This document shows positions 1 to 32,504 of a stretch of 64,000 nt of DNA, piece by piece; the first letter of the stretch is position 1; each line of letters opens with the position of its first letter. Under the pieces are notes generated by a model that saw only the letters and a list, made by a program, of their open reading frames with translations, was not told where the DNA came from and searched no databases. A program made the position numbers and the translations under genes. This DNA is from an uncultured Merdimonas sp. (GTDB lineage: Bacteria; Bacillota; Clostridia; Lachnospirales; Lachnospiraceae). The stretch lies in NCBI GenBank assembly GCA_944378225.1, contig CALWGE010000003.1, positions 5,455-69,454 on the forward strand. The letters are read 5' to 3'.

Positions 1-19
1 CGGCTCTATTCCGGGGATC

Positions 20-1741
20 ATGCGTAAAGTCCGCAGTAAGATGCAGGAGCGCAGGAATATGAAACGCCACGGTACGGCCAGTTTTCCTTCTCCGGAAGAA
101 GCGAAGCGCCAGAGAGAAGCAGTTTTTCCGAATATGGTGAAATTCAGCATTCTGACGCCGCTTTATAATACACCGGAAAAATTTCTTACAGAACTTCTGG
201 ACTGTGTACAGGCTCAGACTTATCAGAACTGGGAACTGTGCCTGGCGGATGGAAGTGATCAGGAGCATTCTTATGTGGGAGAAATCTGCAGAAAGTATGC
301 TGCCGGGGATTCCCGTATTATTTATCATGTGCTGGATCATAATGAGGGTATTTCGGGAAATACGAACGCATGCCTGAAACTGGCTACCGGCGATTATATA
401 GCGCTTCTTGATCATGATGACATCCTGCATCCGGCTGTACTCTATGAGTATGTGAAGGCTATCAATGAAACGGGAGCCGATTATATATACTGTGACGAAA
501 TTACGTTTGAGGGTGACAGCATTGATCATATGATTGTCCTTCATTTCAAACCGGACTTTGCCATTGATAATTTAAGAGGAAATAATTACATCTGCCATTT
601 TTCAGCTTTTTCCAGACATCTGCTGGATGAGACAGGTGTATTCCGGAGTGAATACGACGGAAGTCAGGATCATGATATGATTCTGAGACTGACAGGAAAG
701 GCGAAAAAGGTATATCATGTGCCGAAGGCGCTCTACTACTGGCGCTCTCATAAGGCGTCCGTGGCTCAGGACATCAATGCGAAGACTTATGCGGTGGATG
801 CGGCCAAAAGAGCTGTTCATGATCACATACTGGATGTGTACGGTATGGAGGCAAAAGTGGAAAGTACACGCGCTTTTCCTACGATTTTCCGTATCCGTTA
901 TCCTCTGACAGAGCGGCCGCTGATTTCCATAGTGATCCCGAATAAGGATCATATGGAAGATCTGTCCCGCTGCGTGGAATCCATTATTAACAAATCCACC
1001 TATGAGAATTATGAGATTGTTATTGTAGAGAATAACAGTGAGACAAAGGAAATCTTTGATTATTACAAGGCTCTGGAGCACAATCCCAAGGTACGGGTTG
1101 TAAAATACGAGGGAGACTTCAACTATTCCCGTATCAATAACTTCGGCGTGACTTTTACGAATGGAAAGTATGTACTGCTGCTCAATAACGATATGAAGGT
1201 GATCACCCGGGAGTGGATGGAGGAGCTTCTTATGTATGCTCAGCGTCCGGATGTGGCTGCTGTGGGTGCAAAGCTTTATTATGCGGATAACACTATTCAG
1301 CATGCGGGTATTGTCATAGGCCTTGGAGCTCATCGGGCTGCGGGCCATACCCATTACAAGGATGACAAAATGCATCTGGGATATATGGGACGTCTCTGCT
1401 ATGCACAGGATGTGACAGCCGTAACAGGCGCCTGCCTGCTGGTCAGCCGTGCCCAGTATGATGAAGTGGGAGGCCTGGATGAGACCTTCAGCGTAGCCTT
1501 TAATGATGTAGACTTTTGCCTGAAACTGCGTCATGCGGGTTATCTGAATGTATTTACGCCTTTTGCAGAACTGTACCATTATGAGTCCAAGACGAGAGGT
1601 ATGGAAGAAGGAGAGAAGATGAAACGCTTCCAGCATGAGGTGGATCTGTTCCGTACAAAATGGAAGGCAGATCTGGATGCAGGAGATCCGTACTTTAACC
1701 CGAATTTTTCTCTGGACTATTCTGACTATACGATTAAATAG
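20..1741 (+). CDS. Two-domain family-2 glycosyltransferase (probably 5'-incomplete at the window edge)
   Basis: 573-aa ORF with two GT-A/GT2 cores ('FSILTPLYNTPEKFL...LLDHDD' and 'ISIVIPNKDHMEDL...LLNNDM'). The frame stays open back to nt 2. The residues before the first Met (GSIPGI-MRKVRSKMQERR) resemble 'GILSLYRKMKERQER' of the paralog at 27443, so the true start may lie upstream of the window. Confidence 0.8.
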   Translation: MRKVRSKMQERRNMKRHGTASFPSPEEAKRQREAVFPNMVKFSILTPLYNTPEKFLTELLDCVQAQTYQNWELCLADGSDQEHSYVGEICRKYAAGDSRIIYHVLDHNEGISGNTNACLKLATGDYIALLDHDDILHPAVLYEYVKAINETGADYIYCDEITFEGDSIDHMIVLHFKPDFAIDNLRGNNYICHFSAFSRHLLDETGVFRSEYDGSQDHDMILRLTGKAKKVYHVPKALYYWRSHKASVAQDINAKTYAVDAAKRAVHDHILDVYGMEAKVESTRAFPTIFRIRYPLTERPLISIVIPNKDHMEDLSRCVESIINKSTYENYEIVIVENNSETKEIFDYYKALEHNPKVRVVKYEGDFNYSRINNFGVTFTNGKYVLLLNNDMKVITREWMEELLMYAQRPDVAAVGAKLYYADNTIQHAGIVIGLGAHRAAGHTHYKDDKMHLGYMGRLCYAQDVTAVTGACLLVSRAQYDEVGGLDETFSVAFNDVDFCLKLRHAGYLNVFTPFAELYHYESKTRGMEEGEKMKRFQHEVDLFRTKWKADLDAGDPYFNPNFSLDYSDYTIK

Positions 1742-1753: not shown

Positions 1754-3667
1754 ATGAAATCAGGAGAGAGCATGGCAGAAAAGGGTGGATTCCGGGCAGG
1801 AACTATCGGAAATATCATAGCGGTAATTGCAGCTTTTCTGGCTGTCACAGGATTCAACCTGCTCTATCAGATACGCGGGGAGAGCACGCTGTTTTCCAAC
1901 AGTGTATTCTGCGGACTGGCATTTGGTGCTTTTCTGTATATCGGAATCCGTTTTTTTGCAGAAAGAATTTCAGAAAGGCTGCTTATTATTTCGCTGGCAG
2001 CCGGGATTGTTTTTGCAGCGATGACGGCCTTTGGCTTTTCTTTAAACTATACAGATACCATCTGGAATCCGCAGACATTTCCGGCACTTCTGTGTCTGAC
2101 TCCTTTTTTGGGAATCTGCACAGGTTTTGCGATACGCAGTCTGACGGAAGCTGACAGGCTTGAAAAGACAGACAGGAAAGAAAAAAAAGAGAACCGGTTC
2201 TGGCTCTGGCTTTCCGGCCTTTCTGATGGCAGATTTTATCTTGGGTGTGCAGGGATCCTGTTTCTGTGCTGGGTACCGGTGCTTCTGGCTGCCTGGCCGG
2301 GAATCTTTTCCTATGACTGCGGATGGCAGCTGGCAGCATTTGCAGATGGAGATGTCACAGGGCATCATCCGATTTTCCATACGGCGCTGCTGGGAATAAC
2401 GCGGATGATGGGAAGGTTTCTGTCCGGAACAGGACAGGAGGGAAATCAGACAGGAGCTTTGCTGTATTCGCTGATTCAGATGACAGCAATGGCATTCCTC
2501 TACGCAAGAGTCTGCCTGTTTCTGCGGCAGGAACGCGTTCCGCGCTGGCTTCAGGCCGGCACAGTGCTGTTCCTGGGACTTCATCCGGTGAACGGACTGA
2601 TGGCCCTCTGCGCCACCAAGGATTCTCTTTTTACAGCAGTATTTGCAGTATTCATTGTTCAGCTGTTCCGGATAACAGGCGATCAGGAAGCATTTTTTTC
2701 TTCCGGGAAAAGGCAGATCCTGTTCTGTGTCAATGTATTCTTTCTGTTTGCCCTGCGCAATAACGGATTTCACACATTTCTGATTACTGTACCGTTTCTG
2801 TTTCTGGCATTCCGACGGTTCTGGAAAAAACTGCTGCTGTTGACAGTTGTATGCCTGACGTTGTATGGAATTTACAACGGACCTGTTTACAGTGCGCTGG
2901 GAATTGAACCCGGAGATCCCCGGGAGATGTGCAGTGTACTGATGCAGTCAGCGGCCAGAGTATGGAATCTGGATAATCAGGGATTAACGGAAGAAGAGAA
3001 AGAAGCCTTTCTTTCCATTATTGACGAGGAAGGACTGAATACCTATCTGTCAAGATTTGCAGATCCGGTAAAAGCGTATTTTAACGGAGAAAAATTTGCA
3101 GAAGATCCTGTACCTTTTCTGCGGGCATGGTTTTCTGCCGGAATGCGGCATAAGAAAATGTATCTGGATTCTTTCCTGGCGAATACGTTCGGATACTGGT
3201 ATCCGGGAAATTCTATTGAAGATACAGAACAGGGAAGGGATTATTTTGAGTATTACTGCAAGGATTTCCGGGAAGATATAGATGTGGAGATGGAATCAAA
3301 ACTTCCGCAGCTCTCGGAGTTTTACAGGAAAATAGGAAATGAGTCTTCGTTTCAAAAAATTCCGGTGGCAGCGGCCTTGTTTAATCTTGGAGTATATACC
3401 TGGTTATGGATATTTACAGGTTTTCTGCTTCTATACAGAAAACAGTGGGGAAAGCTTTTGGTGCTGGTTCCCTTTGGAGCTTATTTTCTGACAAATCTTC
3501 TTGGACCTGTAGTGAAAATGCGTTATCATTACCCGTTTATTGCCTGCGCGCCGTTACTGTGCTGTCTTATATGGATGGTATGGAATGAACAGAAAAGGAA
3601 CAGTCAACCGGACGGCAGCATAGGGGGCAATCAGAAAAACGGGAAAAAGGAATGCAGCATATCATAG
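1754..3667 (+). CDS. Large polytopic membrane protein, candidate GT-C-type transferase/polymerase (function unknown)
   Basis: 637-aa ORF with many hydrophobic helices. An acidic loop 'YDCGWQLAAFADGDVTGHHP' follows an early helix, and there is a soluble-looking segment near the C-terminal third. Alternative start ATG 1772 lies behind GGAG. Sits between a GT2 and a polyprenyl-P sugar synthase. Confidence 0.55.
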   Translation: MKSGESMAEKGGFRAGTIGNIIAVIAAFLAVTGFNLLYQIRGESTLFSNSVFCGLAFGAFLYIGIRFFAERISERLLIISLAAGIVFAAMTAFGFSLNYTDTIWNPQTFPALLCLTPFLGICTGFAIRSLTEADRLEKTDRKEKKENRFWLWLSGLSDGRFYLGCAGILFLCWVPVLLAAWPGIFSYDCGWQLAAFADGDVTGHHPIFHTALLGITRMMGRFLSGTGQEGNQTGALLYSLIQMTAMAFLYARVCLFLRQERVPRWLQAGTVLFLGLHPVNGLMALCATKDSLFTAVFAVFIVQLFRITGDQEAFFSSGKRQILFCVNVFFLFALRNNGFHTFLITVPFLFLAFRRFWKKLLLLTVVCLTLYGIYNGPVYSALGIEPGDPREMCSVLMQSAARVWNLDNQGLTEEEKEAFLSIIDEEGLNTYLSRFADPVKAYFNGEKFAEDPVPFLRAWFSAGMRHKKMYLDSFLANTFGYWYPGNSIEDTEQGRDYFEYYCKDFREDIDVEMESKLPQLSEFYRKIGNESSFQKIPVAAALFNLGVYTWLWIFTGFLLLYRKQWGKLLVLVPFGAYFLTNLLGPVVKMRYHYPFIACAPLLCCLIWMVWNEQKRNSQPDGSIGGNQKNGKKECSIS

Positions 3668-3683: not shown

Positions 3684-4643
3684 ATGGATAAGATAGCGGT
3701 GCTTATCCCCTGCTATAATGAGAGTAAAACAGTAAAAAAAGTTGTAGAGGATTTCCGGAAGGCCCTGCCGGAGGCGGTAATCTACGTCTATGACAATAAT
3801 TCTACGGACGGGACGGCTGCGCTTGCTGAGGAAGCCGGCGCTGTAGTGCGTTATGAATATCAGCAGGGCAAGGGAAATGTCATACGCAGGATGTTCCGCG
3901 AAATAGACGCTCAGGTGTATGTGATGGTGGATGGAGACGACACATACCCGGCGGAAGCCGCGCCGGAGATGGTGCGTAAAGTCGTGGAGGAGCAATCAGA
4001 TATGGTGGTGGGCGACAGACTTTCTTCCACCTATTATACAGAAAACAAGCGACCCTTTCACAATTTTGGGAATTCTTTTGTGAAAAACTGTATCAATCGC
4101 TTTTTTGACACGAACATTCAGGATATCATGACGGGATACCGGGCTTTCAGCTATCAGTTTGTAAAGACCTTCCCGGTACTGTCCAGAGGATTTGAGATAG
4201 AGACTGAGATGAGTATCCATGCGGCAGACAAGCATATGCAGGTGGATCATGTGGTGATTGATTACAGGGATCGGCCGGAAGGCAGTGTTTCCAAGCTGAA
4301 TACGTTTTCGGACGGAATTAAGGTGCTCAGCCGGATTCTGAGTCTTTATAAGAACTATAAACCTCTGGCTTTCTTTTCCATGCTTTCAGGAGTGATGGCG
4401 GTACTTTCTGTAATCTTTCTGATTCCCATTCTGGTTGAATACTGGAAAACGGGGCTGGTTCCGCGTTTCCCGACTCTGATTGTCTGCGGTTTTGTCTTGA
4501 TTGCGGCTTTACAGTCTCTGTTTGCGGGCCTGGTGCTTCAGAGCATGGAACAGAAAAATAAACAGGATTTTGAGATGCGGCTGATTCAGGCTAAGGAATG
4601 CTTTGAGAGAACAAAAGCTTCTGAATCGGAGGAGCGTAAATGA
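3684..4643 (+). CDS. Polyprenyl-phosphate glycosyltransferase (GT2, GtrB/CsbB/DPM1-like)
   Basis: 319 aa. N-terminal GT2 core ('IAVLIPCYNESKTV...VYDNNSTDGT...MVDGDD') plus two C-terminal TM helices ('FFSMLSGVMAVLSVIFLIPIL', 'LIVCGFVLIAALQSLFAGLVL'), the architecture of Und-P-sugar synthases. Its stop overlaps the next start (ATGA at 4640). Confidence 0.75.
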   Translation: MDKIAVLIPCYNESKTVKKVVEDFRKALPEAVIYVYDNNSTDGTAALAEEAGAVVRYEYQQGKGNVIRRMFREIDAQVYVMVDGDDTYPAEAAPEMVRKVVEEQSDMVVGDRLSSTYYTENKRPFHNFGNSFVKNCINRFFDTNIQDIMTGYRAFSYQFVKTFPVLSRGFEIETEMSIHAADKHMQVDHVVIDYRDRPEGSVSKLNTFSDGIKVLSRILSLYKNYKPLAFFSMLSGVMAVLSVIFLIPILVEYWKTGLVPRFPTLIVCGFVLIAALQSLFAGLVLQSMEQKNKQDFEMRLIQAKECFERTKASESEERK

Positions 4644-6385
4644 AGAAAAGAAGTGTAAAGACAGGCGCGGCGCTGGCGGCGTCTGTTTTTCTTGTTTTTA
4701 TATGCGGCATTGCGATGTATCAGACTATGGGGTTTGTTTACGCAATTGCAGATGATGTTATCATGCGGGACATTGCGTCCGGAGCATTTACAGGAACGCC
4801 GGATGGACATCTGATTTTTGTAAAGTATGCACTGGGACTCGTCATCAGCTGTATGTATACCTGGAATTCGTCTGTAGACTGGTACGGTTTTTTTATGACC
4901 GGTGTCATCTTTCTTAGTCTGGCAGCTGTGATGTACCGGGGACTTTCCAGAGAAACGAGTCTGAAGTGGAAAGCTATGTATGCCGGAATTACGCTTGGAG
5001 TTTTCGGATGCGGAATGTTTTTTCATATCGCGCAGTTTGAGTGGACTGTCAGCGCGGCAGCCGCAGGAGCAGGAGCTCTGTATCTTTATGTTACGATGCG
5101 GACAGATGAAAACGGCGGGAAGCTTTTGGATGCCATTCTTATCTGGCTTTTGCTGACGTTGACTTATGGGATCAGAGATGACGTATTTCTGATGGTTCTT
5201 CCGGGCTTCGGAATTGCATTTCTGTGGAAATTTTTCCGTAAAGCAGAAGGAAAATTCCTGTTTGACTGGAAGCAGCTTTTGCTTCCGGCAGCAGTGTTTG
5301 GCACCATTGCAGTTATGATGCTGGCAGAACAGCAGGAATATCAGGGAAAAGAGTGGGAGGAATTCCGGACTTTTCAGTCGGCACGTTCTGATATCTACGA
5401 CTATTATGGAGTACCGGTCTATGAATCGAACCCGGCATTTTTTGATAAAATGGGCCTGAATGAGGCAGAGATTCGTAATCTCAGGCACTATGCTCTGTAT
5501 CTTGTGGAGGATATGGACGCGGAGCTTGTGAGAAGCCTTGCGGAAGAGGGAAAAAGACAGAGCGGTCAGCAGGGAGTGAAAGCAAAGATACGAAATGGCG
5601 TTCTTCTTGCGGCAAAGCAGGCTGTCGATAAAGAATATTTCACAGTCAGTATTCCTTTTCTTATTTTTCTGGCAGCTGTGCTTTATCTGATTTTCCGGTA
5701 TTACAGAAAAGCAGTCTGGCCTTTGCTGCTTTTTCTTGGAGCAGAAGGATGTCTGTGGCTGTATCTGGGAATTATGGGAAGACTTCCTGAGAGAGTGGCC
5801 TTTTCCATGCATCTGGTTACGCTTGCAGGAACGGCAGGAGCATTTCTGCACCTGTGGGGAAAATGGGAAGAGAGCGGCCGGAAAGGGGAAGGGTGTAAAA
5901 GAAAGCAGGTGTTTGTCACAGCTTTGCTGCTGTGTTCTCTTGCGGCAGCAGCCTGGCAGTGGAATGTTTCCTCTCAGGCAAATAAAGAAAAGCTGGCTAT
6001 GGATGGCAGTTATCAGCAGTTTAAACTGAGCTGCAAGGAGCAACCCGAAAATCTGTATTTTATAGAAACTTTTATGGCTGAGCCTGTAGGCGGCGCCCGT
6101 GTCAGCACACAGTATTCGGCACAAATCAATAATTGCCTGACTTTGGGAGACTGGTACAGTACGTCGCCTCTGGATGAACAGCGCATGAAAAAACTGGGAA
6201 TTCAGAATGTGGAAGATACGATTCTGCATAATCCGAATGCCTATCTGGTAGTTCGGGATGTAGAGAATCCGGGTTTTCTGAAAGATTATTTCGAGGAAAA
6301 GTATCCGCAGTGCAGTCTGGTTATGCGAAGAAGTGAGACAGTGGGAGGCAGGACTTATTTTCTGTATCAGATAAGCGGTGATTAA
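4640..6385 (+). CDS. Polytopic membrane protein, paralog 1 of a triplicated uncharacterised family (GT-C-like candidate)
   Basis: 581 aa. Shares 'A-DDVIMRDIASGAFTG.PD.HLIFVKY', 'VDWYG', 'FEWTVSAAAAGAG', 'RDDVFLM' and 'EWEEFR.FQSARSDIYDYYGVP.YE' with the next two ORFs. Confidence 0.6.
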   Translation: MKKRSVKTGAALAASVFLVFICGIAMYQTMGFVYAIADDVIMRDIASGAFTGTPDGHLIFVKYALGLVISCMYTWNSSVDWYGFFMTGVIFLSLAAVMYRGLSRETSLKWKAMYAGITLGVFGCGMFFHIAQFEWTVSAAAAGAGALYLYVTMRTDENGGKLLDAILIWLLLTLTYGIRDDVFLMVLPGFGIAFLWKFFRKAEGKFLFDWKQLLLPAAVFGTIAVMMLAEQQEYQGKEWEEFRTFQSARSDIYDYYGVPVYESNPAFFDKMGLNEAEIRNLRHYALYLVEDMDAELVRSLAEEGKRQSGQQGVKAKIRNGVLLAAKQAVDKEYFTVSIPFLIFLAAVLYLIFRYYRKAVWPLLLFLGAEGCLWLYLGIMGRLPERVAFSMHLVTLAGTAGAFLHLWGKWEESGRKGEGCKRKQVFVTALLLCSLAAAAWQWNVSSQANKEKLAMDGSYQQFKLSCKEQPENLYFIETFMAEPVGGARVSTQYSAQINNCLTLGDWYSTSPLDEQRMKKLGIQNVEDTILHNPNAYLVVRDVENPGFLKDYFEEKYPQCSLVMRRSETVGGRTYFLYQISGD

Positions 6386-6424
6386 TGTGCCGGACCGGAA
6401 ATGGACAGGGAAGGAGAAAAGGTG

Positions 6425-8212
6425 ATGAAGCAGATAAATGAAAAAATCAGGGTATTGTCTGTACTCTTTTTGTCTCTTGTGATTATGGGGCTTTATTTTC
6501 TGCTGCTGTATGGCCGCTTCCCATTTATCTATGATATTAATGACGACGTGGCTATGCGAAATGTGGCTGCGGGAGTCATTACAGGGGAACCGGACGCGCA
6601 TCTGATCCATATTAAATATATTCTGGGACTTTTTATCAGTGGATTATACAGAATTCTGCCTGGATTTGACTGGTACGGTCTGACCATGACAGGTATTATA
6701 CTTGTGGCTTTCGCCATGATTCTGTATCGAGGGCTGATATCAAAAAAAAGTGTGCTCTGGAAAGCGGGATACATAATAGTTTCACTTTTACTGTTCACCT
6801 GTGTGGGACTTCAGCATATCACGGCATTTCAGTGGACAGTAACGGCGGCCATTGCAGGCGCGGGCGGAATATATCTTTTTTATACATCCGGAGAGGGAGA
6901 AAAATTTCAGATCGTTCTGGAAGAAGGAATTGCGGTATGCCTGATCCTCCTTTCTCTGATGGTGCGAGATGATGTTTTTCTGATGATGCTTCCTCCTGCA
7001 GGACTTTGTTTCTGCTGGAGATATATATCTTTTCAGAGAAAAGGAAAACTTCCGTTTTCAATGCGGCATGTGGGAGTGCCGTTGGGATTGCTTATCGGGA
7101 CACTTACAATTCTTGGAATTGAGGCTTTTGCGTACCGTTCACCGGAATGGAGAGAATTCCTGGCTTATAATCAGGATCGGGAAGCAATTATGGATTATTA
7201 TGGGCTGGCTTCTTATGAGGAGGATTCCGAATTTTACGATTCTCTTGGGATAACGCCCGAGGAAGCCGAAAATATGCAGAGATATTCGCTGTATCTTGTG
7301 GATGGACTGTACAGTGAAAAGATGCATGCGCTTGCAGAACGCTCCAGAGAGCTTTATATTGCGCAGCATTCCACAAAAGCACGGATTGTGGAAGCGGCAG
7401 AAAGTATTTATGAGCATTGGTGCAAGGATACTTATCGCGGTACAAATCTGATTTGTCTGGCTGTTGTGGCAGGGACTCTTGGTTTCTGCTATGTGAAAGA
7501 CAGAAAACAATGGAACCTCGCCTGGTGTCTGACAGCAGTGACAGGTCTGTACTGGCTGTACCTGGGATACCGCGACCGGATTCTGGAACGGGTTGGTTTT
7601 GCGCTTTATCTTCTGCTGATTTTTGCCCTGCTTGCAGTCTGGTACCGGACAGCATTCCTGGAAACAGTGGAAGAGTTACCGGTGCGAGAAAAAAAGCACA
7701 CGGAGCTTATAAAGGCTCTGCCGGGTGCTGCGGTCTGGGCAGCGTCCTGCCTGGCGCTTACTCTGGCAGCCTTCAGCATCTGGAAAGGCGTAAAAGAGAA
7801 TAATTCCTGGCGCAGCAGTTACAATGAGGAATTTCTGGATGTAAACCGGTATATGGCGGAGCATATGGAAAATGTATATTTTATGACGACGTTTTCCATT
7901 GAGACTTATACGGATAATTTCACGATTCGAAGAGATTTTGAGTTCAGTAATCTGCTTTCTGTAGGAGGATGGCATACATTTTCTCCTCTTGAGAATGAAA
8001 AGGATGAGAAGCTGGGGATTCATGATCCGAAACGGGATATCGCTGAGAAAGAGAATGTCTATGTAATTTCATTGGAGAATGTAAATCTGCGGTATATGGA
8101 TCGGTATTTTACCAGTATATACGGAGAGAACTATCTGGGAAGAGAACTTACAGACGCGCTTGACTATGGGGAAAGGGTGTTTGAAGTGTACAATTTTGAG
8201 GTGGCGGAATGA
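6425..8212 (+). CDS. Polytopic membrane protein, paralog 2 of the triplicated family
   Basis: The ORF track starts at 6401, but ATG 6425 sits behind GAAGGAGAAAAGG. Motifs 'INDDVAMRNVAAGVITGEPDAHLIHIKY', 'FDWYG', 'FQWTVTAAIAGAG', 'RDDVFLMM' and 'EWREFLAYNQDREAIMDYYG'. Confidence 0.6.
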   Translation: MKQINEKIRVLSVLFLSLVIMGLYFLLLYGRFPFIYDINDDVAMRNVAAGVITGEPDAHLIHIKYILGLFISGLYRILPGFDWYGLTMTGIILVAFAMILYRGLISKKSVLWKAGYIIVSLLLFTCVGLQHITAFQWTVTAAIAGAGGIYLFYTSGEGEKFQIVLEEGIAVCLILLSLMVRDDVFLMMLPPAGLCFCWRYISFQRKGKLPFSMRHVGVPLGLLIGTLTILGIEAFAYRSPEWREFLAYNQDREAIMDYYGLASYEEDSEFYDSLGITPEEAENMQRYSLYLVDGLYSEKMHALAERSRELYIAQHSTKARIVEAAESIYEHWCKDTYRGTNLICLAVVAGTLGFCYVKDRKQWNLAWCLTAVTGLYWLYLGYRDRILERVGFALYLLLIFALLAVWYRTAFLETVEELPVREKKHTELIKALPGAAVWAASCLALTLAAFSIWKGVKENNSWRSSYNEEFLDVNRYMAEHMENVYFMTTFSIETYTDNFTIRRDFEFSNLLSVGGWHTFSPLENEKDEKLGIHDPKRDIAEKENVYVISLENVNLRYMDRYFTSIYGENYLGRELTDALDYGERVFEVYNFEVAE

Positions 8213-9918
8213 GAGAGAATATGAAAATGAAAAAGCTGTCGGCATTTGCTCTGTTTTTTCTTTTTTTGATAATTATTTTTTCTGTGCTCCCAGTAACTTA
8301 TGCCATTAATGATGACGTGGCCATGAGAGATATTGCATCAGGAGCTATGTCAGGACAGCCAGATTATCATCTTGTATTTGTAAAAGCGGTTCTTGGGCTT
8401 ATACTGCAGGCTATATATCTTCGTTTCCCGGGCATGGATTGGTACGGATTATTGTGGATGAGTTTTATTGTACTATCTGCTGCTTTGGTTTTATGGAATA
8501 TTCTTGCCATTTGTGAGAGAAAAAAGAAAAATTTGTTTATAGCTGCGGTTTTATTCCTGATGATATTTACTCTGACGGCTCTCGGACATCTGGTAAGTTT
8601 TCAGTTTACGGTGGTTGCCGGAATCCTGGCTGGAACAGCAATTTTTCTATACGGAGTGGATGAAAGCAAAGGGAAAAAAGAGTATCTGACAGCAGCATTG
8701 ATTATTTTTCTGATTTGGGCATCTTTTTGCGTCAGAGAAAATGTTCTCATGATGGCTGTCCCTTTTGGCGGTTTGATGATTCTGTATAAAACCGGAAGTG
8801 TAAAAAAGAAAGTGCTGATGGCTTTTATTGTGGTCATTGGTCTGGCAGGCATTATGCTGTTTGAACACATAGCATATTCCGGAGAAGAGTGGGAGACTTA
8901 TCGGTATTATAATTCAGCTCGTTCTGTGGTATATGATTATTATGGGGTGCCGCCGTATGAAGAGAATAAAGAGTTTTATAACAGTATCGGGTTCGAGGAA
9001 TATGATGTAGCAAATTTGGAGCGCTATCAGCTGGTTTTTGTGGATGAACTGGAAAATGGGAAAATGCAGCAGGTGGCGGAATATGCAAAACAGCAGTATA
9101 ATAAACAGAATACTTTGATTACCCGAATTAAATCCGGAATTAAGACAGCGATATTGGGAGAATGTGAAAAAGAAAATATTATTTTGAATCTTTTAGCCAA
9201 GCTATTGATTTTGTTTAATATGATATGGGGGATTCGACATAACAAAAAAAATTTTTTTATAATCAATGCAGGGTTTTTAGTATGTGAAGGAATACTGGTG
9301 CTTTATCTTGGATATGAAGGAAGACTGCCGGCCAGAGTGATGGCGGCATTGCTTCTGATAGAGTTTCTGTCGGCTTTGTCGGTCTGGTTTTCGAATCAAA
9401 GTGAGAGAGTGAAAACTGCAGAAGATAGAAAAGGGTACAGATGGAAAACGGCTTTTCTGTTCATAGCGTTATTGATTCTGTCCGGTTGTAAAATATCTGA
9501 GATATATGATTCTCAGACACAAAGATACAGAAGTAATCAAGAATACGAGCTTTTACAATCCTTTTATGTGAGTAACCCGGAAAACGTATATTATATTCCT
9601 GTTAATTGGACAGCGGCATATTCAAGTAATTTTTATATCAGGAAAGATGCCCAGGTTATTAATGGATTTAATCTGGGAGGCTGGACAAAACATCTTCCGG
9701 TTTATGAGAAAGGGTTGGAGAGATTCGGTATAGAGAATGAAGATACAGCTATTGTTGAAAATGAGAACGTATATTTGATTCTGAGTGCACCGTCCAGTAA
9801 AATCACGCCGCATTATGAAGAAAAGTATAAAGAAGTTCAATGGACACAGGTTGATACAGCTCCAGTCTACGGAATGGAGGTCCCTGTCTTTAAAATAACG
9901 GGAGGAGATAGAAAATGA
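8209..9918 (+). CDS. Polytopic membrane protein, paralog 3 of the triplicated family (AT-rich copy)
   Basis: 569 aa. Motifs 'INDDVAMRDIASGAMSGQPDYHLVFVK', 'MDWYG', 'FQFTVVAGILAG', 'RENVLMM' and 'EWETYRYYNSARSVVYDYYGVPPYE'. Start overlaps the upstream stop and the stop overlaps the wecE start. Visibly lower GC than paralogs 1 and 2. Confidence 0.6.
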   Translation: MRENMKMKKLSAFALFFLFLIIIFSVLPVTYAINDDVAMRDIASGAMSGQPDYHLVFVKAVLGLILQAIYLRFPGMDWYGLLWMSFIVLSAALVLWNILAICERKKKNLFIAAVLFLMIFTLTALGHLVSFQFTVVAGILAGTAIFLYGVDESKGKKEYLTAALIIFLIWASFCVRENVLMMAVPFGGLMILYKTGSVKKKVLMAFIVVIGLAGIMLFEHIAYSGEEWETYRYYNSARSVVYDYYGVPPYEENKEFYNSIGFEEYDVANLERYQLVFVDELENGKMQQVAEYAKQQYNKQNTLITRIKSGIKTAILGECEKENIILNLLAKLLILFNMIWGIRHNKKNFFIINAGFLVCEGILVLYLGYEGRLPARVMAALLLIEFLSALSVWFSNQSERVKTAEDRKGYRWKTAFLFIALLILSGCKISEIYDSQTQRYRSNQEYELLQSFYVSNPENVYYIPVNWTAAYSSNFYIRKDAQVINGFNLGGWTKHLPVYEKGLERFGIENEDTAIVENENVYLILSAPSSKITPHYEEKYKEVQWTQVDTAPVYGMEVPVFKITGGDRK

Positions 9919-11081: not shown

Positions 11082-11807
11082 ATGAATATTGTAGATGCAT
11101 TCTGGGAAAAAAGGAATCTGGGCGTGGATGTGACGGAGATTCAATGTGAACTGACAGATCGGAAAGAAGATTTGAAGAAAGCACTTTCTGTGATTAAGAC
11201 GCCTTATTCTGTGTGCAAGATTCCCGGAGGAGCCGTGGAACTGCTTTTATGTGCGCAGGAACAGGGATATCAGGTGATAGAAATGAGTATTGGCCTGGAA
11301 GGGAAAGTAAAAGAACTGGCGCTTCCCACGATTTATAAACGGTTTGCTTCAGAAATTTCCATACGGGATGCTGAGCAGGATCAGATAGAGAAAGTATTGC
11401 GGGAAATAGAATCCGGAGACATTTTCAGTACAGATCGCATTGCACTGGATCCTCAGTTTGGGAAAAGAACAGCAGGAAAGAGATATGCGAACTGGACGCG
11501 GGACTTATTGCAGCAGGGAGCACGTCTGTGTATTGGCTATTATAAGGATAATCCGGTTGCTTTTGGAGTTAATAAAGATAAAGAAAGAGGTGTGTCAGAT
11601 GCTGTATTGGGAGGTGCCTTGGCCAGCGGAGCTGGAGTCGGACTAGGGTTCCTTTCCATATATGCAAATCTGGTATCGGGGATACAGCATGGAAATACAA
11701 AAATGAAAACACATGTTTCTTCAAATAATCCGCCTATTATCCATTTGCATCGTCAGTTTGGCTTTCATATCAGTGAGATGCAGTATGTATTAGTAAAACA
11801 TCAATAA
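11082..11807 (+). CDS. WecD-like dTDP-4-amino-4,6-dideoxyhexose N-acyltransferase (GNAT-type), tentative
   Basis: 241 aa directly after wecE. The layout resembles WecD/RffC as I recall it: an N-terminal 'FWEKRNLGVDV' block, a middle 'ELLLCAQEQGYQVIEMSIGLEG', and 'DRIALDPQFGKRTAGKRYANWTRDLL'. Assignment is by position plus a remembered pattern only. Confidence 0.5.
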   Translation: MNIVDAFWEKRNLGVDVTEIQCELTDRKEDLKKALSVIKTPYSVCKIPGGAVELLLCAQEQGYQVIEMSIGLEGKVKELALPTIYKRFASEISIRDAEQDQIEKVLREIESGDIFSTDRIALDPQFGKRTAGKRYANWTRDLLQQGARLCIGYYKDNPVAFGVNKDKERGVSDAVLGGALASGAGVGLGFLSIYANLVSGIQHGNTKMKTHVSSNNPPIIHLHRQFGFHISEMQYVLVKHQ

Positions 11808-11833
11808 AACATATTGAAGAGTGGCATTATGAA

Positions 11834-11862
11834 TTGACACTAAATAAAAATATAGGTAAAAT
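11834..11862 (+). promoter_or_regulatory. Sigma-A-type promoter (TTGACA-N17-TAAAAT) in front of the SDR-transketolase-ACP-ligase-LuxE-LuxC cassette
   Basis: TTGACA at 11834-11839, a 17-nt spacer, then TAAAAT at 11857-11862. Lies in the 106-nt AT-rich gap ~50 nt upstream of the GAAGGAGG RBS of the SDR gene. Confidence 0.55.
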
Positions 11863-11913
11863 CATACTGAGTCTGAAAGAAGTGTATTTATAGCGTTATT
11901 GAAGGAGGAAAAT

Positions 11914-14433: not shown

Positions 14434-14453
14434 CATTTAGGAGGGAAAATAAC

Positions 14454-14693
14454 ATGACAAACAAGGAAAAATATGTGAACGCGTTTACAGAGACTTTTGA
14501 CATTACAGAGGAAGAGACAAAGGGCCTTCAGTATTCCGGAATCTCCGCATGGGATTCTGTAGGACATATGTCCCTCGTGGCGGCTCTGGAAGATGCTTTT
14601 GATATTATGATGGACACGGATGATATTATTGATTTCAGCTCTTTTGAAAAGGGAATGGAAATACTGAGTGAGAAATATGATGTGGAATTTTAA
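14454..14693 (+). CDS. Acyl/peptidyl carrier protein (DltC-sized, 79 aa)
   Basis: A 'WDSVGHMSLVAALEDAF' phosphopantetheine-site-like DS motif in a 79-aa acidic protein, placed immediately before an adenylating ligase. Confidence 0.7.
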   Translation: MTNKEKYVNAFTETFDITEEETKGLQYSGISAWDSVGHMSLVAALEDAFDIMMDTDDIIDFSSFEKGMEILSEKYDVEF

Positions 14694-18414: not shown

Positions 18415-18444
18415 AGCAGCAAGAGAAACGGAAGGTACTGTAGA

Positions 18445-19140: not shown

Positions 19141-19368
19141 AACGGCGGCAGAGTCCTGTAGCCACATAGGGCAATGTAGATTTCAGATATCTTGTTTTGC
19201 CGGTGGGCTATGGCTCAAATTATATGGTAGATATTCAAATCGGTGAAACAGCAGGTTATGCAGTGATAAACTAGGGAGAGGAATATACAGAAAATCTCAC
19301 AGATGGCGGATCTAGAGTTCTTCTGGAAGATGAGTGGTTTGTGGTTTTACAGAATGAGAGGCGGAGTA

Positions 19369-20550
19369 ATGGTGAAGAATGAAAAGAAAAATCTGGTTAT
19401 AACAGTTTTTTTTGCCGTATTTCTGTTTGTGATTACCTATCAGGTTATCATGGGAGCGATTAGAAATCCATACAGCGATTATCTGGGGCATGCGGAAAAC
19501 GCGGAGTTACTTCTGAATTCCGGACTTGGGGCAGTGCTACATGAAATAGGATATCCTTTATGGGCCTTACTTACTGCGGGGATCATGAAAATATCCAGAG
19601 CACCGGCTTATGAAGCTTCCGCGATTGCGGGCGGAATTCTGAATGTTCTGACCTATGCGCTGATCTACATGTATCTGATAAAAGACCATAAGGAAGAAAA
19701 ATTTTGGATTGCTGCGTTAAGCTGGCTTCTGCTTTTGGCAGGGCCGTTTTATATTCCCTGGTATAATTCAGAGATATATGCGGGGCAGGTGACGCCAAAT
19801 ATCTGGCACAATCCCACGACTATCTGTGTCCGGCCCTTTGCTTTCGTGGCTTTTCTGACGATTCTGAAACTTTTGGAAGAATATGAGGAAGAGCAGAAAA
19901 AACTTACTGTCAGGGACTGGCTTCTGCTGGCTCTTGCCCTTGTATTTTGCAATCTGGCAAAGCCCAGTTTTGTACAGATAGCTGTTCCCGGGCTGGCGGT
20001 TTATTTAATTGTTTTGCTGATTCGCACCAGAGGAAAAGCTTTTAGCTTCTGTTTTCAGACTGCGTCAGCTTTTGTGCCCTGTGTCCTCGTGATGTTATGG
20101 CAGTTGCTGGTTTCTTTTGGAACATCCAGTTCTGCGGATGGGGGAATTGAAATAGCCTGGTTTGATGTGATGGGCGCGTCATCGCCAAGTATTCCGTTTT
20201 CCATGCTGCTGAGTTATCTTTTCCCTGTTTATGTTCTCCTGACTAATATCAGAATTGTCAGGGAGCGAGACATTCAGGTGACGTTTTTTATGTGGCTTGG
20301 CGGATTCCTGGAAGCAGCCATGCTGGCGGAGACAGGCTATCGGCGTTACCATGGAAACTTTGGATGGGGATATGTGCTGGCAACCTTTCTGGTCTATGTG
20401 GTGACTTTCCGGTATTTCCTGAAGCGCAATCAGGAATACGATTATGAAAATGTAAAAGATAGAATTCTTGTTATGGGGGGCTGGGTGATTTTTTTACTGC
20501 AGTTTGCTATAGGAATTTATTATATAAGCACGTTTTTTATTCCTGTGTAA
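19369..20550 (+). CDS. Polytopic membrane protein, ArnT/GT-C-like candidate acceptor transferase
   Basis: The ORF track starts at 19303, but ATG 19369 follows GAGAGGCGGAG. About 393 aa, very hydrophobic, with a first-loop motif 'NPYSDYLGHAENAE'. Sits directly upstream of the ArnC-like, ArnE/F-like and GtrA genes. Confidence 0.55.
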   Translation: MVKNEKKNLVITVFFAVFLFVITYQVIMGAIRNPYSDYLGHAENAELLLNSGLGAVLHEIGYPLWALLTAGIMKISRAPAYEASAIAGGILNVLTYALIYMYLIKDHKEEKFWIAALSWLLLLAGPFYIPWYNSEIYAGQVTPNIWHNPTTICVRPFAFVAFLTILKLLEEYEEEQKKLTVRDWLLLALALVFCNLAKPSFVQIAVPGLAVYLIVLLIRTRGKAFSFCFQTASAFVPCVLVMLWQLLVSFGTSSSADGGIEIAWFDVMGASSPSIPFSMLLSYLFPVYVLLTNIRIVRERDIQVTFFMWLGGFLEAAMLAETGYRRYHGNFGWGYVLATFLVYVVTFRYFLKRNQEYDYENVKDRILVMGGWVIFLLQFAIGIYYISTFFIPV

Positions 20551-20574: not shown

Positions 20575-21516
20575 ATGGACATATCGTTTGTGATACCATG
20601 TTATGGTTCGGAACATACCATAGAGAAGGTTGTGACTGAACTGAGGAATACTATGGCCGGAAGGCCTGAATACAGCTATGAAATTATTCTGGTCAATGAT
20701 AATTCTCCGGACCAGGTCTGGGGCGTGATTCAGAAGCTGGCGAAGACGTATGATAATATAAAAGGAATCTCACTTGCCCGTAATTTTGGTCAGCATGCGG
20801 CTCTGATGGCCGGTTACAGGAACTGTAAGGGTGAGATTGTGGTTTCCCTCGATGATGACGGACAGACTCCGGCGGACGAGGCATTCCTTCTGATTGATAA
20901 AATTAAGGAAGGGTATGATGTGGTTTACGGATATTATCCGGAAATCAGGCAGTCACATTTCCGGATATTCGGCAGCTGGGTAAATGAGAAAATGATAGAA
21001 ATACTTCTGGGAAAACCGAAAAAGCTGAAGTGTACCAGCTATTATGCGGCCAGAAGATTTATTATTGAGGAGATGCTGCGGTATAAGAATTCCTATCCTT
21101 ATGTAGGCGGACTGGTACTGCGCAGTACAAAAAATATTGGAAATGTTCCTGTACACCATCGTGCAAGAATGGAGGGAAATTCCGGATATTCCATGGGGAA
21201 ACTGCTGGCGTTGTGGTTTAACGGATTTACAGCCTTTTCTGTGAAACCGCTTCGTCTGGCTACTGTGGTAGGCTTTTTGTGCGCTGTTGCAGGTTTTATT
21301 TATGGTCTGATTATGGTTGTGCGCAAACTGATGGGATTTACTACGGTTCTGGGTTATAGCTCTCTGATTACAGTGATTCTGTTTATTGGTGGTATTATCA
21401 TGGTTTTGCTTGGAATTATAGGAGAGTATATCGGACGGATTTATATCAGTCTGAATAACGCTCCTCAGTATGTGATTCGGGAAACGATAGGAGGCAGTGA
21501 TGAGAAAACTGACTAA
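20575..21516 (+). CDS. Polyprenyl-phosphate glycosyltransferase (GT2, ArnC/GtrB-like)
   Basis: 313 aa. Motifs 'ISFVIPCYGSEHTI', 'ILVNDNSPD', 'RNFGQHAALMAG' and 'VSLDDDGQTP', plus two C-terminal TM helices ending 'GIIGEYIGRIYISLNNAPQYVIRE'. Confidence 0.8.
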   Translation: MDISFVIPCYGSEHTIEKVVTELRNTMAGRPEYSYEIILVNDNSPDQVWGVIQKLAKTYDNIKGISLARNFGQHAALMAGYRNCKGEIVVSLDDDGQTPADEAFLLIDKIKEGYDVVYGYYPEIRQSHFRIFGSWVNEKMIEILLGKPKKLKCTSYYAARRFIIEEMLRYKNSYPYVGGLVLRSTKNIGNVPVHHRARMEGNSGYSMGKLLALWFNGFTAFSVKPLRLATVVGFLCAVAGFIYGLIMVVRKLMGFTTVLGYSSLITVILFIGGIIMVLLGIIGEYIGRIYISLNNAPQYVIRETIGGSDEKTD

Positions 21517-22234: not shown

Positions 22235-22663
22235 ATGAAAAAACTATTCGCGCAGATCATCAAATTCGGAGCCGTAGGGTTCCTGTGTTTCTTTATCGAT
22301 TATGCCATCATGGTAGGCCTGACAGAATTTGCAGGAATTCCATCCTTAGTATCCAGCGGCTGTTCCTATACCATTTCTACGGTTGTAAACTATATTCTGA
22401 GTGTCACTGTCGTGTTTGACGCGGATAAAGAAGCAAACAAGATGGTACAGTTTGTTGTGTTTGTGGTTCTGAGTCTCATTGGACTCGGTATTAATCAGCT
22501 CTGCATGTGGGGCGGCACGGCATGGCTGGAGCAGCTGATGGAGCAGAGCAGGCTTCTGGCAGGCTATTCACGTTATGCTTACATGGTAGTAAAAATCTTT
22601 GCGACTGCAGTGGTAATGGTATATAATTTCATTACAAGAAAGATTTTTATCGAGAAACACTGA
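22235..22663 (+). CDS. GtrA-family membrane protein (lipid-linked sugar translocation)
   Basis: 142 aa. 'IKFGAVGFLCFFIDYAIMVGL' and a C-terminal 'VMVYNFITRKIFI' are typical of the GtrA/GtcA family. Confidence 0.8.
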   Translation: MKKLFAQIIKFGAVGFLCFFIDYAIMVGLTEFAGIPSLVSSGCSYTISTVVNYILSVTVVFDADKEANKMVQFVVFVVLSLIGLGINQLCMWGGTAWLEQLMEQSRLLAGYSRYAYMVVKIFATAVVMVYNFITRKIFIEKH

Positions 22664-29849: not shown

Positions 29850-31259
29850 TTGATTAAGGACAACCAGCGTCATTTTAACAGGCTGCATGTGGTGCTGGAC
29901 GCATTTGTTATCGCTGCGTCTTATATGCTGGCCTGGTGGGTGCGATTCCCTCTTCAGAATAATATATCGGGTATTGTATTCCGGCATTACATGAGCATGC
30001 TGCCCTTTTTGTTTGTGCTTTATATAGGACTGTACGCTTTGTTTGGTCTTTATACGACAAAGAGCGTGCGCCGTAAGAGGGTTGAAGCCGAGAAGATTGT
30101 ACAGGCCAATACGATTGGTCTGGTTCTGTTCATGGCCGCGCTGTTCTTCTCCCGGGAAAATACAGAGTTTACGACAAACTATTCCCGAATGATGCTGGCA
30201 TGGTTTTATGTTTTCAATATCGGTCTGGAATGCCTGTTTCGCAATTTTATCCGTCTGGCTCTCCGCCATATCCGGGAAAAGGGCTTCAATCAGAAACATA
30301 TGATTCTGGTAGGATACAGTCGGGCGGCGGAAGAATATATTGACCGTATCAAGGCTAATCCGGAATGGGGCTATGATATTATGGGAATCCTGGACGATAA
30401 TGTTCAGCCAGGCATGAAATATCGTGGCGTGGAGGTCTTTGGACGGACAGAAGGAATTGAAGAGACACTGGAGAATGCCAAACCGGATGAGATTGCCATT
30501 ACTCTGGGATTGAGTGAATACTCGAAACTGGAGCATATTGTGGCAGTATGTGAGAAATCCGGCGTGCATACAAAGTTTATTCCGGATTACAATAACATTA
30601 TACCGACACGTCCTTATACAGAGGATCTGATGGGACTGCCGGTCATTAACATCCGACACGTCCCGTTGACAAACACGTTTAACGCTTTTCTGAAGCGTTC
30701 CATGGATTTGGCTGGGAGTGTCTGTGCTATTATACTGTTTTCGCCCGTAATGCTTCTGACGGCCGTGGCTGTCAAAATGACTTCGCCAGGCCCGCTTATA
30801 TATACCCAGGAGCGTGTAGGACTTCATAACAAGACATTCCGGATGTATAAATTCCGCTCTATGGATGTCCAGTCTCCCAAAAAGGAGAGAGGCGCCTGGA
30901 CGGTACCGGACGATCCGAGAGTGACAAAAGTGGGAAAAATCATACGGAAGACGAGCATTGACGAGCTTCCGCAGCTGTTTAATATATTAAAAGGGGATAT
31001 GAGCCTGGTAGGCCCGCGGCCGGAGCGTCCGTTTTTTGTGGAAAAGTTCCGGGAAGAGATCCCGCGTTACATGATTAAACACCAGGTGCGTCCGGGTATG
31101 ACCGGCTGGGCACAAATCAATGGCTACAGAGGAAACACCTCAATTCGAAAGCGAATCGAGTATGATCTCTATTACATTGAAAACTGGACGCTGGGGTTTG
31201 ATATAAAAATCTTATTTCTGACAATTTTCAAGGGCTTTATTAACAAAAATGCCTATTAA
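29850..31259 (+). CDS. Priming polyprenyl-phosphate hexose-1-phosphate transferase (WbaP/WcaJ/EpsL-type bacterial sugar transferase)
   Basis: 469 aa, TTG start. N-terminal TM helices, a central NAD-like linker, and a C-terminal catalytic block: 'KRSMDLAGS', 'FRMYKFRSM', '[40 protein letters not shown]', '[11 protein letters not shown]' and 'DLYYIENW'. Confidence 0.88.
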
Positions 31260-31286
31260 ATGTTGGGAAACAGAAAGGGTTATATT

Positions 31287-32504
31287 ATGGCAACCAATAC
31301 GAAAGGCAGAAATGCAGGAAAAAGAAACTCGGGAAACGGAAGACATAAGGAACATAGAACGCACAGAGAGCGGGATGAGTATGGCGAGTATAAACTCAGC
31401 CGGAAAGAGCAGAAACGTCTTAAGAAGGCAAAACGCAGAAGAAAGCTGATTGCCATCCTGGCTGTGGAATTTGTATTGATTCTTTTTCTGGGTATGGGCG
31501 TGTTTGCTTTGAGCAAGCTGGGCAAACTTCAGGATCTTGGTGTAAACCCGGATGACATTGGTATGAATGAGGATATTGATGAGGATACTGCAGAGCTCCT
31601 GAGCGGATATACCAATATTGCTCTCTTTGGTCTTGGCTCGAGAACGCCGGGAAGCCTTGGAGCGGGCGAATTGAGCGATACGATTATTATCGCCAGTATC
31701 AACAATGAGACCAAGGAAGTAAGGATGATATCTGTCTACCGTGATACTTATCTGAACCGTGCAGACGATACTTATGGTAAATGTAATGCTGCCTATTCCA
31801 AAGGCGGTCCCAAACAGGCCATTGAGATGCTGAATACCAATCTTGATCTGAACATCAAGTATTATGTCAGCATAGACTTTACTGCACTGATAAAAACCGT
31901 CGACCTGCTTGGCGGTGTGGAGATAGATGTTAAACCGGAAGAAGTTGACGCAATCAACGGATATATGTACGAGACTACAGAGATTGCCGAGAAAGCAGAC
32001 GATGACTCTATCAATCCTTACAACAGCTTTATCGAAGAACCGGGACTTCAGACACTGTATGGCGTTCAGGCTACAGCTTACTGCCGGATTCGTAAGGTCG
32101 GAAATAATGACTATGAAAGAACCGAGCGTCAGCGCCGCGTCATTGAGCAGATTGTAGAGAAGTCCAGAACAGCGGGACTTGGCAAGATTAATGCAATGAT
32201 TGATGAGGTATTTCCGCTGGTGGCAACAAATATACCCAAGACGACTCTGATCGGTATGGCAGCCAGCATGATGTCTTATGAACTGGGCGAGACAAGCGGT
32301 TTCCCCACATACAGAGTGGATAATATGAAGATGGATGGCCAGGCTGTGGTTATCCCTGCAGATCTGGTGGCAAATGTAACCGAGCTTCATCGGTTCCTCT
32401 TTGATGAAGAGGATTATTATCCGTCACCGACCGTTCTGGATATCAATGAGAAAATCATTTCGGATACGGGTGTAAAAGCACAGGAAACAGCCGGTACAGA
32501 ATAA
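31287..32504 (+). CDS. LytR-CpsA-Psr (LCP) family glycopolymer-peptidoglycan ligase
   Basis: ATG 31287 sits behind GAAAGGG (the ORF track starts at 31260). Basic cytoplasmic tail, one TM helix, and an LCP core: 'NIALFGLGSR', 'SDTIIIASIN', 'ISVYRDTY' and 'RIRKVGNNDYERTERQRRVI'. Confidence 0.85.
   Translation: MATNTKGRNAGKRNSGNGRHKEHRTHRERDEYGEYKLSRKEQKRLKKAKRRRKLIAILAVEFVLILFLGMGVFALSKLGKLQDLGVNPDDIGMNEDIDEDTAELLSGYTNIALFGLGSRTPGSLGAGELSDTIIIASINNETKEVRMISVYRDTYLNRADDTYGKCNAAYSKGGPKQAIEMLNTNLDLNIKYYVSIDFTALIKTVDLLGGVEIDVKPEEVDAINGYMYETTEIAEKADDDSINPYNSFIEEPGLQTLYGVQATAYCRIRKVGNNDYERTERQRRVIEQIVEKSRTAGLGKINAMIDEVFPLVATNIPKTTLIGMAASMMSYELGETSGFPTYRVDNMKMDGQAVVIPADLVANVTELHRFLFDEEDYYPSPTVLDINEKIISDTGVKAQETAGTE

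Follow-up and report, generated by a model that had tools for sequence, protein, structure and literature searches.

Three-component transmembrane glycosylation systems acting on the wall polymers of Gram-positive bacteria have been described as CsbB/GtcA/YfhO, GtlA/GtlB, the CsdAB/CD/EF sets of Lactococcus lactis and GacI-L of Streptococcus pyogenes (PMC8035078); their parts are a GT-A enzyme, anchored in the membrane, for the synthesis of a C55-P-sugar, a flippase of the GtrA or another type, and a polytopic GT-C glycosyltransferase with an external acidic motif, all of which have candidate counterparts at the locus described below. Several characterised Gram-positive GT-C enzymes, among them CsdB, YkoS and GltB, carry no Pfam domain (PMC8035078), like the proteins under study here. 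In the Gtr systems of Shigella and Salmonella and the mycobacterial Emb/Aft systems, several divergent GT-C enzymes, which differ in acceptor position or linkage, draw on a single conserved lipid-sugar synthase (PMC11127046). GT136, the ORF12 protein of Citrobacter youngae, was an unannotated GT-C recognised from its AlphaFold model, with an aspartate following the first transmembrane helix, plus an extra extracytoplasmic domain; it was later shown to decorate a polymer that an ABC transporter exports, and a new CAZy family was founded on it (PMC11127046). Here we describe three tandem genes in a 64,000-nt stretch of DNA (the window) from an uncultured Merdimonas sp. (Lachnospiraceae; assembly GCA_944378225.1, contig CALWGE010000003.1, positions 5,455-69,454, forward strand), whose products are, in our judgement, fairly probably ancient paralogs within an unannotated class A-like GT-C family that adds lipid-linked sugars to an exported wall polymer. 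What is new is the sequence family; the kind of enzyme and the kind of system are already known.

The three genes and the two that flank them directly are as follows.

3684..4643, forward strand: DPMS/AglJ-like GT2 (PF00535; TIGR04182 AglJ, 8e-62) with two C-terminal transmembrane helices
4640..6385, forward strand: paralog 1, 581 aa, member of the unannotated family with predicted GT-C fold
6401..8212, forward strand: paralog 2, 603 aa, start more likely at ATG 6425; the protein modelled here, acidic motif D48-D49
8209..9918, forward strand: paralog 3, 569 aa
9915..11042, forward strand: WecE-type dTDP-4-amino-4,6-dideoxyhexose aminotransferase (NF008687, 6.5e-191)

Pairwise BLASTP alignments of near full length give 31% identity for paralogs 1 and 2 (E 2e-86), 30% for paralogs 1 and 3 (E 3e-72) and 30% for paralogs 2 and 3 (E 6e-74); this paralogy is far above chance. 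The sequence-only reading, made earlier from the letters of this DNA, had called the three open reading frames (ORFs) homologous along their whole length, and their coordinates, strand and homology are confirmed; every motif block it had listed, (A/N)DDV(I/A)MR...G.PD.HL, DWYG, F(E/Q)(W/F)TV, R(D/E)(D/N)V and EW...R....DYYG...YE, is found in the alignment. There is little or no space between the genes: an ATGA overlap joins the stop of the upstream GT2 gene to the start of paralog 1 (4640-4643), another joins paralogs 2 and 3 (8209-8212), paralog 3 overlaps the WecE gene by 4 nt (9915-9918), and paralogs 1 and 2 are 15 nt apart. For paralog 2, the start at ATG 6425 is the likelier one because a better Shine-Dalgarno sequence (GGAAGGAG) precedes it. 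The G+C (GC) content of paralog 3 is 38.1% (36% at third codon positions), against 45-47% for paralogs 1 and 2 and 46.7% for the whole window; a short-chain dehydrogenase/reductase (SDR) gene further downstream (11899-12657; 38.6% GC) is likewise AT-richer than the window and than paralogs 1 and 2. The low GC of these two genes suggests a later acquisition, in line with the sporadic occurrence of the paralog 3 clade described below.

None of the paralogs gave a meaningful match at E ≤ 1 in searches against Pfam and NCBIfam, whose models matched none of them, which agrees with the earlier statement that the family cannot be placed in any named Pfam family. The named GT-C models of Pfam (PMT, PMT_2, YfhO, Glucos_trans_II, STT3 and others) matched neither the paralogs at E ≤ 1 nor 59 of their relatives at E ≤ 0.01, and nothing meaningful was returned when the sequences in the PDB were searched with the three paralogs and with 3- and 59-sequence profiles. 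The family is large: a profile of the three paralogs, searched against 1.84 billion representative proteins, retrieved 5,103 clusters at 50% identity, 998 of them with E ≤ 1e-30. All the database names met for these relatives were 'hypothetical protein', ten diverse relatives that were checked carried this name or none, and literature on DUF6020, DUF6056/6057 and GT-C together with Lachnospiraceae yielded nothing on the paralog family. Some relatives bear an extra C-terminal domain of the F5/8 type C lectin type. Weak matches to DUF6057, a Pfam family of uncharacterised polytopic proteins, occur in six of the 59 distant relatives (best E 8.5e-6), to DUF6056 in three and to DUF6541 in one, the paralogs of the window matching none of these at E ≤ 1; such matches in a minority of distant relatives suggest a remote relationship, which gives no functional information, these DUFs being without known function.

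An AlphaFold2 model of paralog 2, made from an input alignment of 35 sequences, has a mean predicted local distance difference test score (pLDDT) of 89.3 and a predicted TM-score (pTM) of 0.89. It shows 11 transmembrane helices, hydropathy agreeing with a polytopic character, and a soluble C-terminal α/β domain of about 115-140 aa, as expected from the 9-11 hydrophobic helices and soluble C-terminal domain that had been read from the sequence. The first transmembrane helix (TM1, about residues 16-39) is followed by an external loop with two short helices (40-90), six more transmembrane helices, a 98-residue helical external region (245-342), four further transmembrane helices and the α/β domain, at about residues 488-603. 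When this model was compared with the PDB by Foldseek, the ten best matches were all GT-C enzymes (ArnT, PglB, AftD, ALG12, DPY19 and STT3), with probabilities of 0.91-1.0 and ArnT (5f15) in first place at 1.0; Pmt4 and AftB came next. Unrelated proteins in the list, such as G-protein-coupled receptors, ABC transporters and other helical proteins, all fell under a probability of 0.15. The GT-C structures matched are those that serve as GT-C references in PMC11127046 and PMC8035078. Because the individual scores are modest, the assignment rests on the specificity of the match list, and the model gives moderate support to a class A-like GT-C fold for the paralogs, as the sequence-only reading had proposed.

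Across 59 aligned relatives of 22-31% identity, D48, D49, G58, R189 and W524 of paralog 2 are invariant and about twenty more residues nearly so; one relative, P0173, which appeared to have lost the acidic motif, was rejected as an exception, its gene call being truncated at the N-terminus. D48 and D49 lie just after TM1, in the loop with the two short helices, on the side predicted to be extracytoplasmic. This side was assigned from the model together with charge counts under the positive-inside rule, with the N-terminus inside: the N-terminus and short inner loops have a K+R value of 12.8 against a D+E value of 5.5, and a net acidic charge marks the external loops EL1 and EL4 and the C-terminal domain. 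The 33 positions with a conservation of at least 80%, Met1 excepted, all fall in EL1, EL3, EL4, EL5, the C-terminal domain or the outer ends of helices. GT-C enzymes have been described as having a DxD-like motif in an external loop (Rismondo et al., PMC8035078), a catalytic aspartate following TM1 (Kelly et al., PMC11127046) and conserved residues on the outer face (PMC10920833); with an acidic pair after TM1 and conservation on the outer face, the paralogs match this description. Of the findings that the sequence-only reading had named as speaking against it, the two open to computation, a model unlike GT-C folds and a DDV motif predicted to be cytoplasmic, were looked for, and neither was seen. 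By analogy with ArnT and PglB, D48/D49 would be a candidate catalytic or metal-binding pair, and R189, R393 and R397 candidate phosphate ligands.

The gene translationally coupled to paralog 1 had been taken for a polyprenyl-phosphate sugar synthase; this typing holds, given its AglJ match, its match to the Pyrococcus Dol-P-Man synthase 5mlz (E 3.8e-11) and the ATGA overlap, and the enzyme is a probable polyprenyl-phosphate hexose synthase. A survey of distribution and copy number, which the sequence-only reading had called for, revealed recurrent loci and a variable number of paralogs in addition to the large family size. Thirty related loci were recovered from species-representative genomes, nearly all of Lachnospiraceae (Merdimonas, Merdisoma, Anaerosacchariphilus, Laedolimicola, Lachnoclostridium An131/An138), with a few evidently mis-binned. 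A cassette made of two GT2 genes, a DUF6020 gene, a GT2 gene, the paralogs and WecE is present, whole or for the most part, in 29 of the 30 loci (L032 being without it), and in 29 of the 30 the gene right after the paralogs is WecE. In a neighbour-joining tree the paralogs of the related loci separate cleanly into three orthologous clades, one for each paralog, which indicates that the duplications are old. The paralog 2 clade is represented in all 29 cassette loci and the paralog 1 clade in 23 of the 30 loci; the paralog 3 clade is sporadic, being found in the window and six other loci. Most loci have two paralogs and some three; locus L004 was checked for a decayed paralog 3 and none was found. 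Across cassette loci the GT2 proteins are 77-97% conserved, against 45-78% for the paralogs.

A further 55 loci with more distant relatives again place the family near a GT2 of polyprenyl-phosphate type, in varied gene orders and orientations. In type B loci the family gene is convergent with a DUF6020-like gene and a DPMS-like GT2 that is 67-70% identical; type C loci consist of a DPMS-like GT2, the family gene and an ArnC-like GT2; type D loci have WecE, the family gene, a GNAT and an ArnC-like GT2, followed by a u415-like or DUF6020-like gene (u415 being a membrane protein of the window listed below). DUF6020 is found alongside the paralog family and the DPMS-like GT2 in two gene orders. 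In loci L062-L087 (for instance L064:1717-6501) the DPMS-like GT2 is 67-70% identical to the window copy, the family protein about 25% and the DUF6020-like protein about 26%; here the predicted donor-making enzyme is conserved while the putative transferases diverge. After dereplication to 29 clusters, features were counted within three genes of the family member: a polyprenyl-phosphate-type GT2 occurs in 13 of the 29, in at least five gene orders, WecE in 11, another family member in 12 and DUF6020 in 8. Among 120 neighbouring genes typed by Pfam, families that make or modify glycans prevail, with GT2, GDSL/SGNH, DegT, Acyl_transf_3, GtrII, GNAT, GT1 and Wzx the most prominent. These associations favour a role in extracytoplasmic glycan modification dependent on lipid-linked donors.

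The surrounding wall-glycopolymer locus begins upstream of the window, in a part read from a metagenomic contig of 99% identity, and extends to about 33.5 kb, where hflX comes next. Its other features are listed here.

Upstream of the window: RmlA, RmlC, a 273-aa protein and a Wzm/Wzt ABC exporter
1..1741, forward strand: two-domain GT2, about 655 aa, 5' end cut by the window edge; candidate cytoplasmic polymerising glycosyltransferase
1754..3667, forward strand: DUF6020 polytopic membrane protein, 637 aa (PF19484, 1.7e-45)
11082-18414, after WecE: putative acyl-building genes
19303..20550, forward strand: u415, 415-aa polytopic membrane protein, no family match
20575..21516, forward strand: ArnC/GtrB-like GT2 (NF007986, 3.3e-52; PgfS, 2.8e-46) with two C-terminal transmembrane helices
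21497..22190, forward strand: two small EamA/SMR-type membrane proteins of 120 and 123 aa (PF00892; ArnE 2.9e-6, ArnF 7.4e-5)
22235..22663, forward strand: GtrA-family small membrane protein (PF04138, 1.1e-20), candidate flippase
22685-27433, mid-locus: two tandem CotH kinase-like proteins, a VTC-domain protein and a DUF4956 membrane protein
27443-29843: two further GT2s
29850..31259, forward strand: WcaJ-type undecaprenyl-phosphate glucose phosphotransferase, polymer primer (TIGR03023, 1.5e-149)
31260..32504, forward strand: LytR-CpsA-Psr (LCP) ligase, joining glycopolymer to peptidoglycan (PF03816, 4.4e-33)
32573-33508: last GT2 of the locus

The polymer of the locus is probably exported by the ABC transporter and attached to peptidoglycan. 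The two-domain GT2 at the window edge shows high conservation (81-97%) between related loci. For the DUF6020 protein, the model obtained (pLDDT 90.5) has GT-C enzymes, including Pmt4, STT3 and ArnT, as its top 13 PDB matches (best E 0.045), so that four probable GT-C enzymes would flank the lipid-sugar synthase; on this model, the protein is probably a fourth GT-C-fold enzyme and Pfam DUF6020 another unrecognised GT-C family. Profile-profile comparison by hhalign gave no convincing sequence relation of the paralog family to DUF6020 (probability 6%) or to u415 (probability 50%, E 1.6e-4 over 169 columns), and both were set apart from the family. u415 is a possible, weak candidate for a further lipid-sugar-dependent transferase. 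The GT2 at 20575..21516, which matches the solved structures of ArnC (9hwj, 4e-42) and GtrB (5ekp, 2e-36), would be the second polyprenyl-phosphate sugar synthase of the locus, and the EamA pair beside it an ArnE/ArnF-like candidate flippase for lipid-linked sugar. The stretch 19303-22663, with u415, this GT2, the EamA pair and GtrA, forms a second lipid-linked-sugar module, and with WecE added it resembles an Arn-type pathway, here in a Gram-positive bacterium. The sequence-only reading had overlooked the second synthase, the flippase candidates and the two further polytopic proteins, DUF6020 and u415. The genes at 11082-18414 encode a 241-aa protein, an SDR, a transketolase split into N and C halves, a 79-aa ORF product, an AMP-ligase, LuxE and LuxC, a set of a kind that could assemble an unusual acyl group, perhaps one for N-acylating the 4-amino sugar. 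The 241-aa protein, which has no family match, is possibly a WecD-like N-acyltransferase; the 79-aa ORF at about 14454-14693 is ACP-sized and has no family match on record. Related loci have a GNAT or an ATP-grasp enzyme in place of this set.

In the mechanism that we propose, the WcaJ-like enzyme would prime the backbone on undecaprenyl phosphate, GT2 enzymes would build it in the cytoplasm, the Wzm/Wzt transporter would export it and the LCP ligase would join it to peptidoglycan. In parallel, the DPMS/AglJ-like GT2, and/or the ArnC-like GT2 12 kb downstream, would charge undecaprenyl phosphate with a sugar; GtrA or the ArnE/F-like pair would flip the lipid-linked sugar outward, and each paralog would bind it at the membrane's outer face and transfer the sugar to the exported polymer. 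From the coupled DPMS/AglJ-like GT2 and the recurrent GT2 association we infer that the donor is linked to a lipid phosphate. A hexose donor is indicated because the DPMS-like GT2 is translationally coupled to paralog 1. By analogy with other systems, the paralogs plausibly serve different acceptor positions or make different linkages, as the sequence-only reading had suggested from the triplication; this is consistent with their three ancient clades, their variable presence and a conserved synthase beside divergent GT-C proteins.

In comparison with the three-component systems, the synthase and GT-C genes are likewise adjacent and the acceptor would likewise be an exported wall glycopolymer. 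The paralogs differ in lacking sequence similarity to the YfhO, PMT_2 and Glucos_trans_II models, in standing as three tandem copies, with a DUF6020 GT-C-like protein, around one synthase, and in belonging to a locus with two synthases and two kinds of flippase in a host from the Lachnospiraceae (Clostridia), where such systems are unstudied. With the Arn pathway the locus shares the best fold match (ArnT, GT83) and counterparts of ArnB (WecE, of the DegT family), ArnC and ArnE/F, and with ArnT itself the acidic residues after TM1 and conserved basic residues on the outer face; however, there is no sequence similarity to ArnT, the helices number 11 rather than 13 and the C-terminal domain is another one, while the acceptor here would be a wall polysaccharide and not lipid A, and the amino sugar would be a dTDP-derived 4-amino-4,6-dideoxyhexose. 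The pattern of the Gtr and Emb/Aft systems is also seen here, the synthase being 67-92% identical across loci and the paralogs 25-78%. In contrast to Gtr genes, which are phage-borne and whose GtrC types are unrelated to each other and to the paralog family, the paralogs are chromosomal, tandem and fall into old orthologous clades. GT136 offers a precedent for the recognition of an unannotated GT-C from a model, and no sequence kinship with the paralogs would be expected; it differs in its undecaprenyl-phosphate-ribofuranose donor, UbiA-type synthase and MATE flippase.

The nearest alternative keeps the same fold and outside chemistry and changes the donor: in place of a neutral hexose from the adjacent DPMS-like GT2, at least one paralog would use an N-acylated 4-amino-4,6-dideoxyhexose linked to undecaprenyl phosphate. 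The route would be Arn-like, running from WecE through an N-acyltransferase, an ArnC-like GT2 and an ArnE/F-like flippase to a family member as the counterpart of ArnT. For at least some members, an amino-sugar route of this kind is suggested by the repeated presence beside them of WecE along with an N-acyltransferase, an ArnC-like GT2 and an EamA pair, and we regard it as possible, if doubtful. Beyond the 4-nt overlap and the position of WecE in 29 of the 30 related loci, a WecE that is 66-69% identical adjoins relatives of only 25-28% identity (L034, L036, L041, L054, L081), where a GNAT or an ATP-grasp enzyme also occurs along with an ArnC-like GT2 and an EamA pair; WecE lies within three genes in the 11 of 29 family clusters already counted; the 15.8-kb locus L036 has no DUF6020 or u415 homologue, leaving the family member as the sole such candidate; and the window holds a full ArnC-like, ArnE/F-like and GtrA set. 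Yet the gene coupled to paralog 1 is DPMS/AglJ-like and not ArnC-like, many family loci (type B, L062-L087) have a DPMS-like GT2 but no WecE, the amino-sugar transferase could instead be u415 or DUF6020, and the product of WecE may just feed a cytoplasmic GT2. No GtrB/ArnC-type enzyme is known to use a dTDP-sugar, which also counts against this donor. The extension of the idea to the family as such, which would then close an Arn-type route of Gram-positive gut Clostridia in the manner of ArnT and carry an unusually N-acylated 4-amino-4,6-dideoxyhexose, made by WecE and the genes at 11082-18414, from undecaprenyl phosphate to a wall polysaccharide, is somewhat more tentative still. That the paralogs would instead glycosylate proteins such as S-layer proteins or surface adhesins, in the manner of PMT, PglB/AglB or the streptococcal Pgf membrane proteins, seems to us unlikely: although the fold matches PglB, STT3, Pmt4 and DPY19, all protein glycosyltransferases, the adjacent GT2 has its closest match in AglJ, from the N-glycosylation of archaeal S-layers, and the second GT2 one in PgfS, from the S. 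mutans system for glycosylating proteins, the locus is of a polysaccharide type (ABC exporter, Rml genes, WcaJ-like primer, LCP ligase), no candidate acceptor protein gene was seen among the neighbours, and the paralogs show no WWDYG-type or PMT loop-5/MIR features and leave the Pfam STT3 and PMT models unmatched.

Less probable again are polymerases or ligases that would use oligosaccharides linked to undecaprenyl diphosphate, as Wzy-, WaaL- and PglB-type enzymes do. The GT-C fold includes such enzymes (PMC10920833), PglB and STT3 are among the Foldseek matches, and the locus has a WcaJ-type primer and no recognised Wzy; however, its ABC exporter needs no Wzy, the recurrent partner of the family is a polyprenyl-monophosphate sugar synthase, no SEDS structure appears among the 50 matches listed, WaaL (7tpg) appears for DUF6020 only and at a probability of 0.12, and the relative's locus L036 already has its own EpsG/Wzy-like protein and Wzx. 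A non-catalytic role as scaffold, transporter or flippase sharing the helical-bundle architecture of GT-C proteins would fit the modest TM-scores and marginal E-values, but the invariant acidic pair and arginines all lie on one membrane face, the top of the match list is purely GT-C with transporters at a probability below 0.15, and the locus already has dedicated flippase candidates; we consider it very improbable. Several points weigh against the reading that we prefer, in which the paralogs are GT-C enzymes adding lipid-linked sugars to an exported wall polymer. No sequence method ties the family to any characterised GT-C, and the support is computational throughout. The Foldseek E-values are marginal (best 8.8e-4), with global TM-scores of 0.27-0.44 that lie under the usual same-fold value of 0.5, and the topology is drawn from the model and charge counts. 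As to gene context, three related loci (L018-L020) have no adjacent GT2, 16 of the 29 clusters, some on short contigs, have no lipid-sugar GT2 within three genes, and the GtrA and EamA flippase candidates, though present in the locus, are 12 kb from the paralogs.

Lachnospiraceae are abundant commensals of the gut. At least one of these, Ruminococcus gnavus, has a wall glucorhamnan with glucose side chains that elicits TLR4-dependent inflammation (PMC6601261), and the attachment of such side chains is unstudied in Clostridia. Recognising the family as GT-C would improve the annotation of many gut metagenome loci and would single out its members as candidate determinants of surface variation at strain level, of phage receptors and of immune recognition. 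Proven activity would probably justify a new CAZy family, as it did for GT136; if the Arn-type route were true, it would add a new donor class for GT-C enzymes along with a new CAZy family, and the variable paralogs (paralog 2 constant, paralogs 1 and 3 optional) would underlie a serotype-like variation of immunologically relevant wall glycans. The finding leaves the general understanding of such glycosylation systems as it is.

A role of the family as a mobile seroconversion module is not evident: tblastn found no match to it in plasmids and one weak match in phages, a full-length relative at 25.5% identity (E 2e-31) in MT837038.1 (5519-7351). This entry is an unannotated 7.9-kb 'Bacteriophage sp.' contig from human faeces and could represent a prophage-borne copy or bacterial contamination. 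Between the acyl-building genes and u415, an AT-rich stretch of 890 bp (18415-19302; 38% GC) with no long ORF parts the locus into two halves; neither an Rfam match nor a leftover of any gene of the locus was found in it, and it may be an operon boundary or promoter region. The locus as a whole gave no match to Rfam. Elsewhere in the window, at 63158-63416, lies a glycine-GGAnGA riboswitch (Rfam RF03166, 137.9 bits) that is unrelated to the paralogs.

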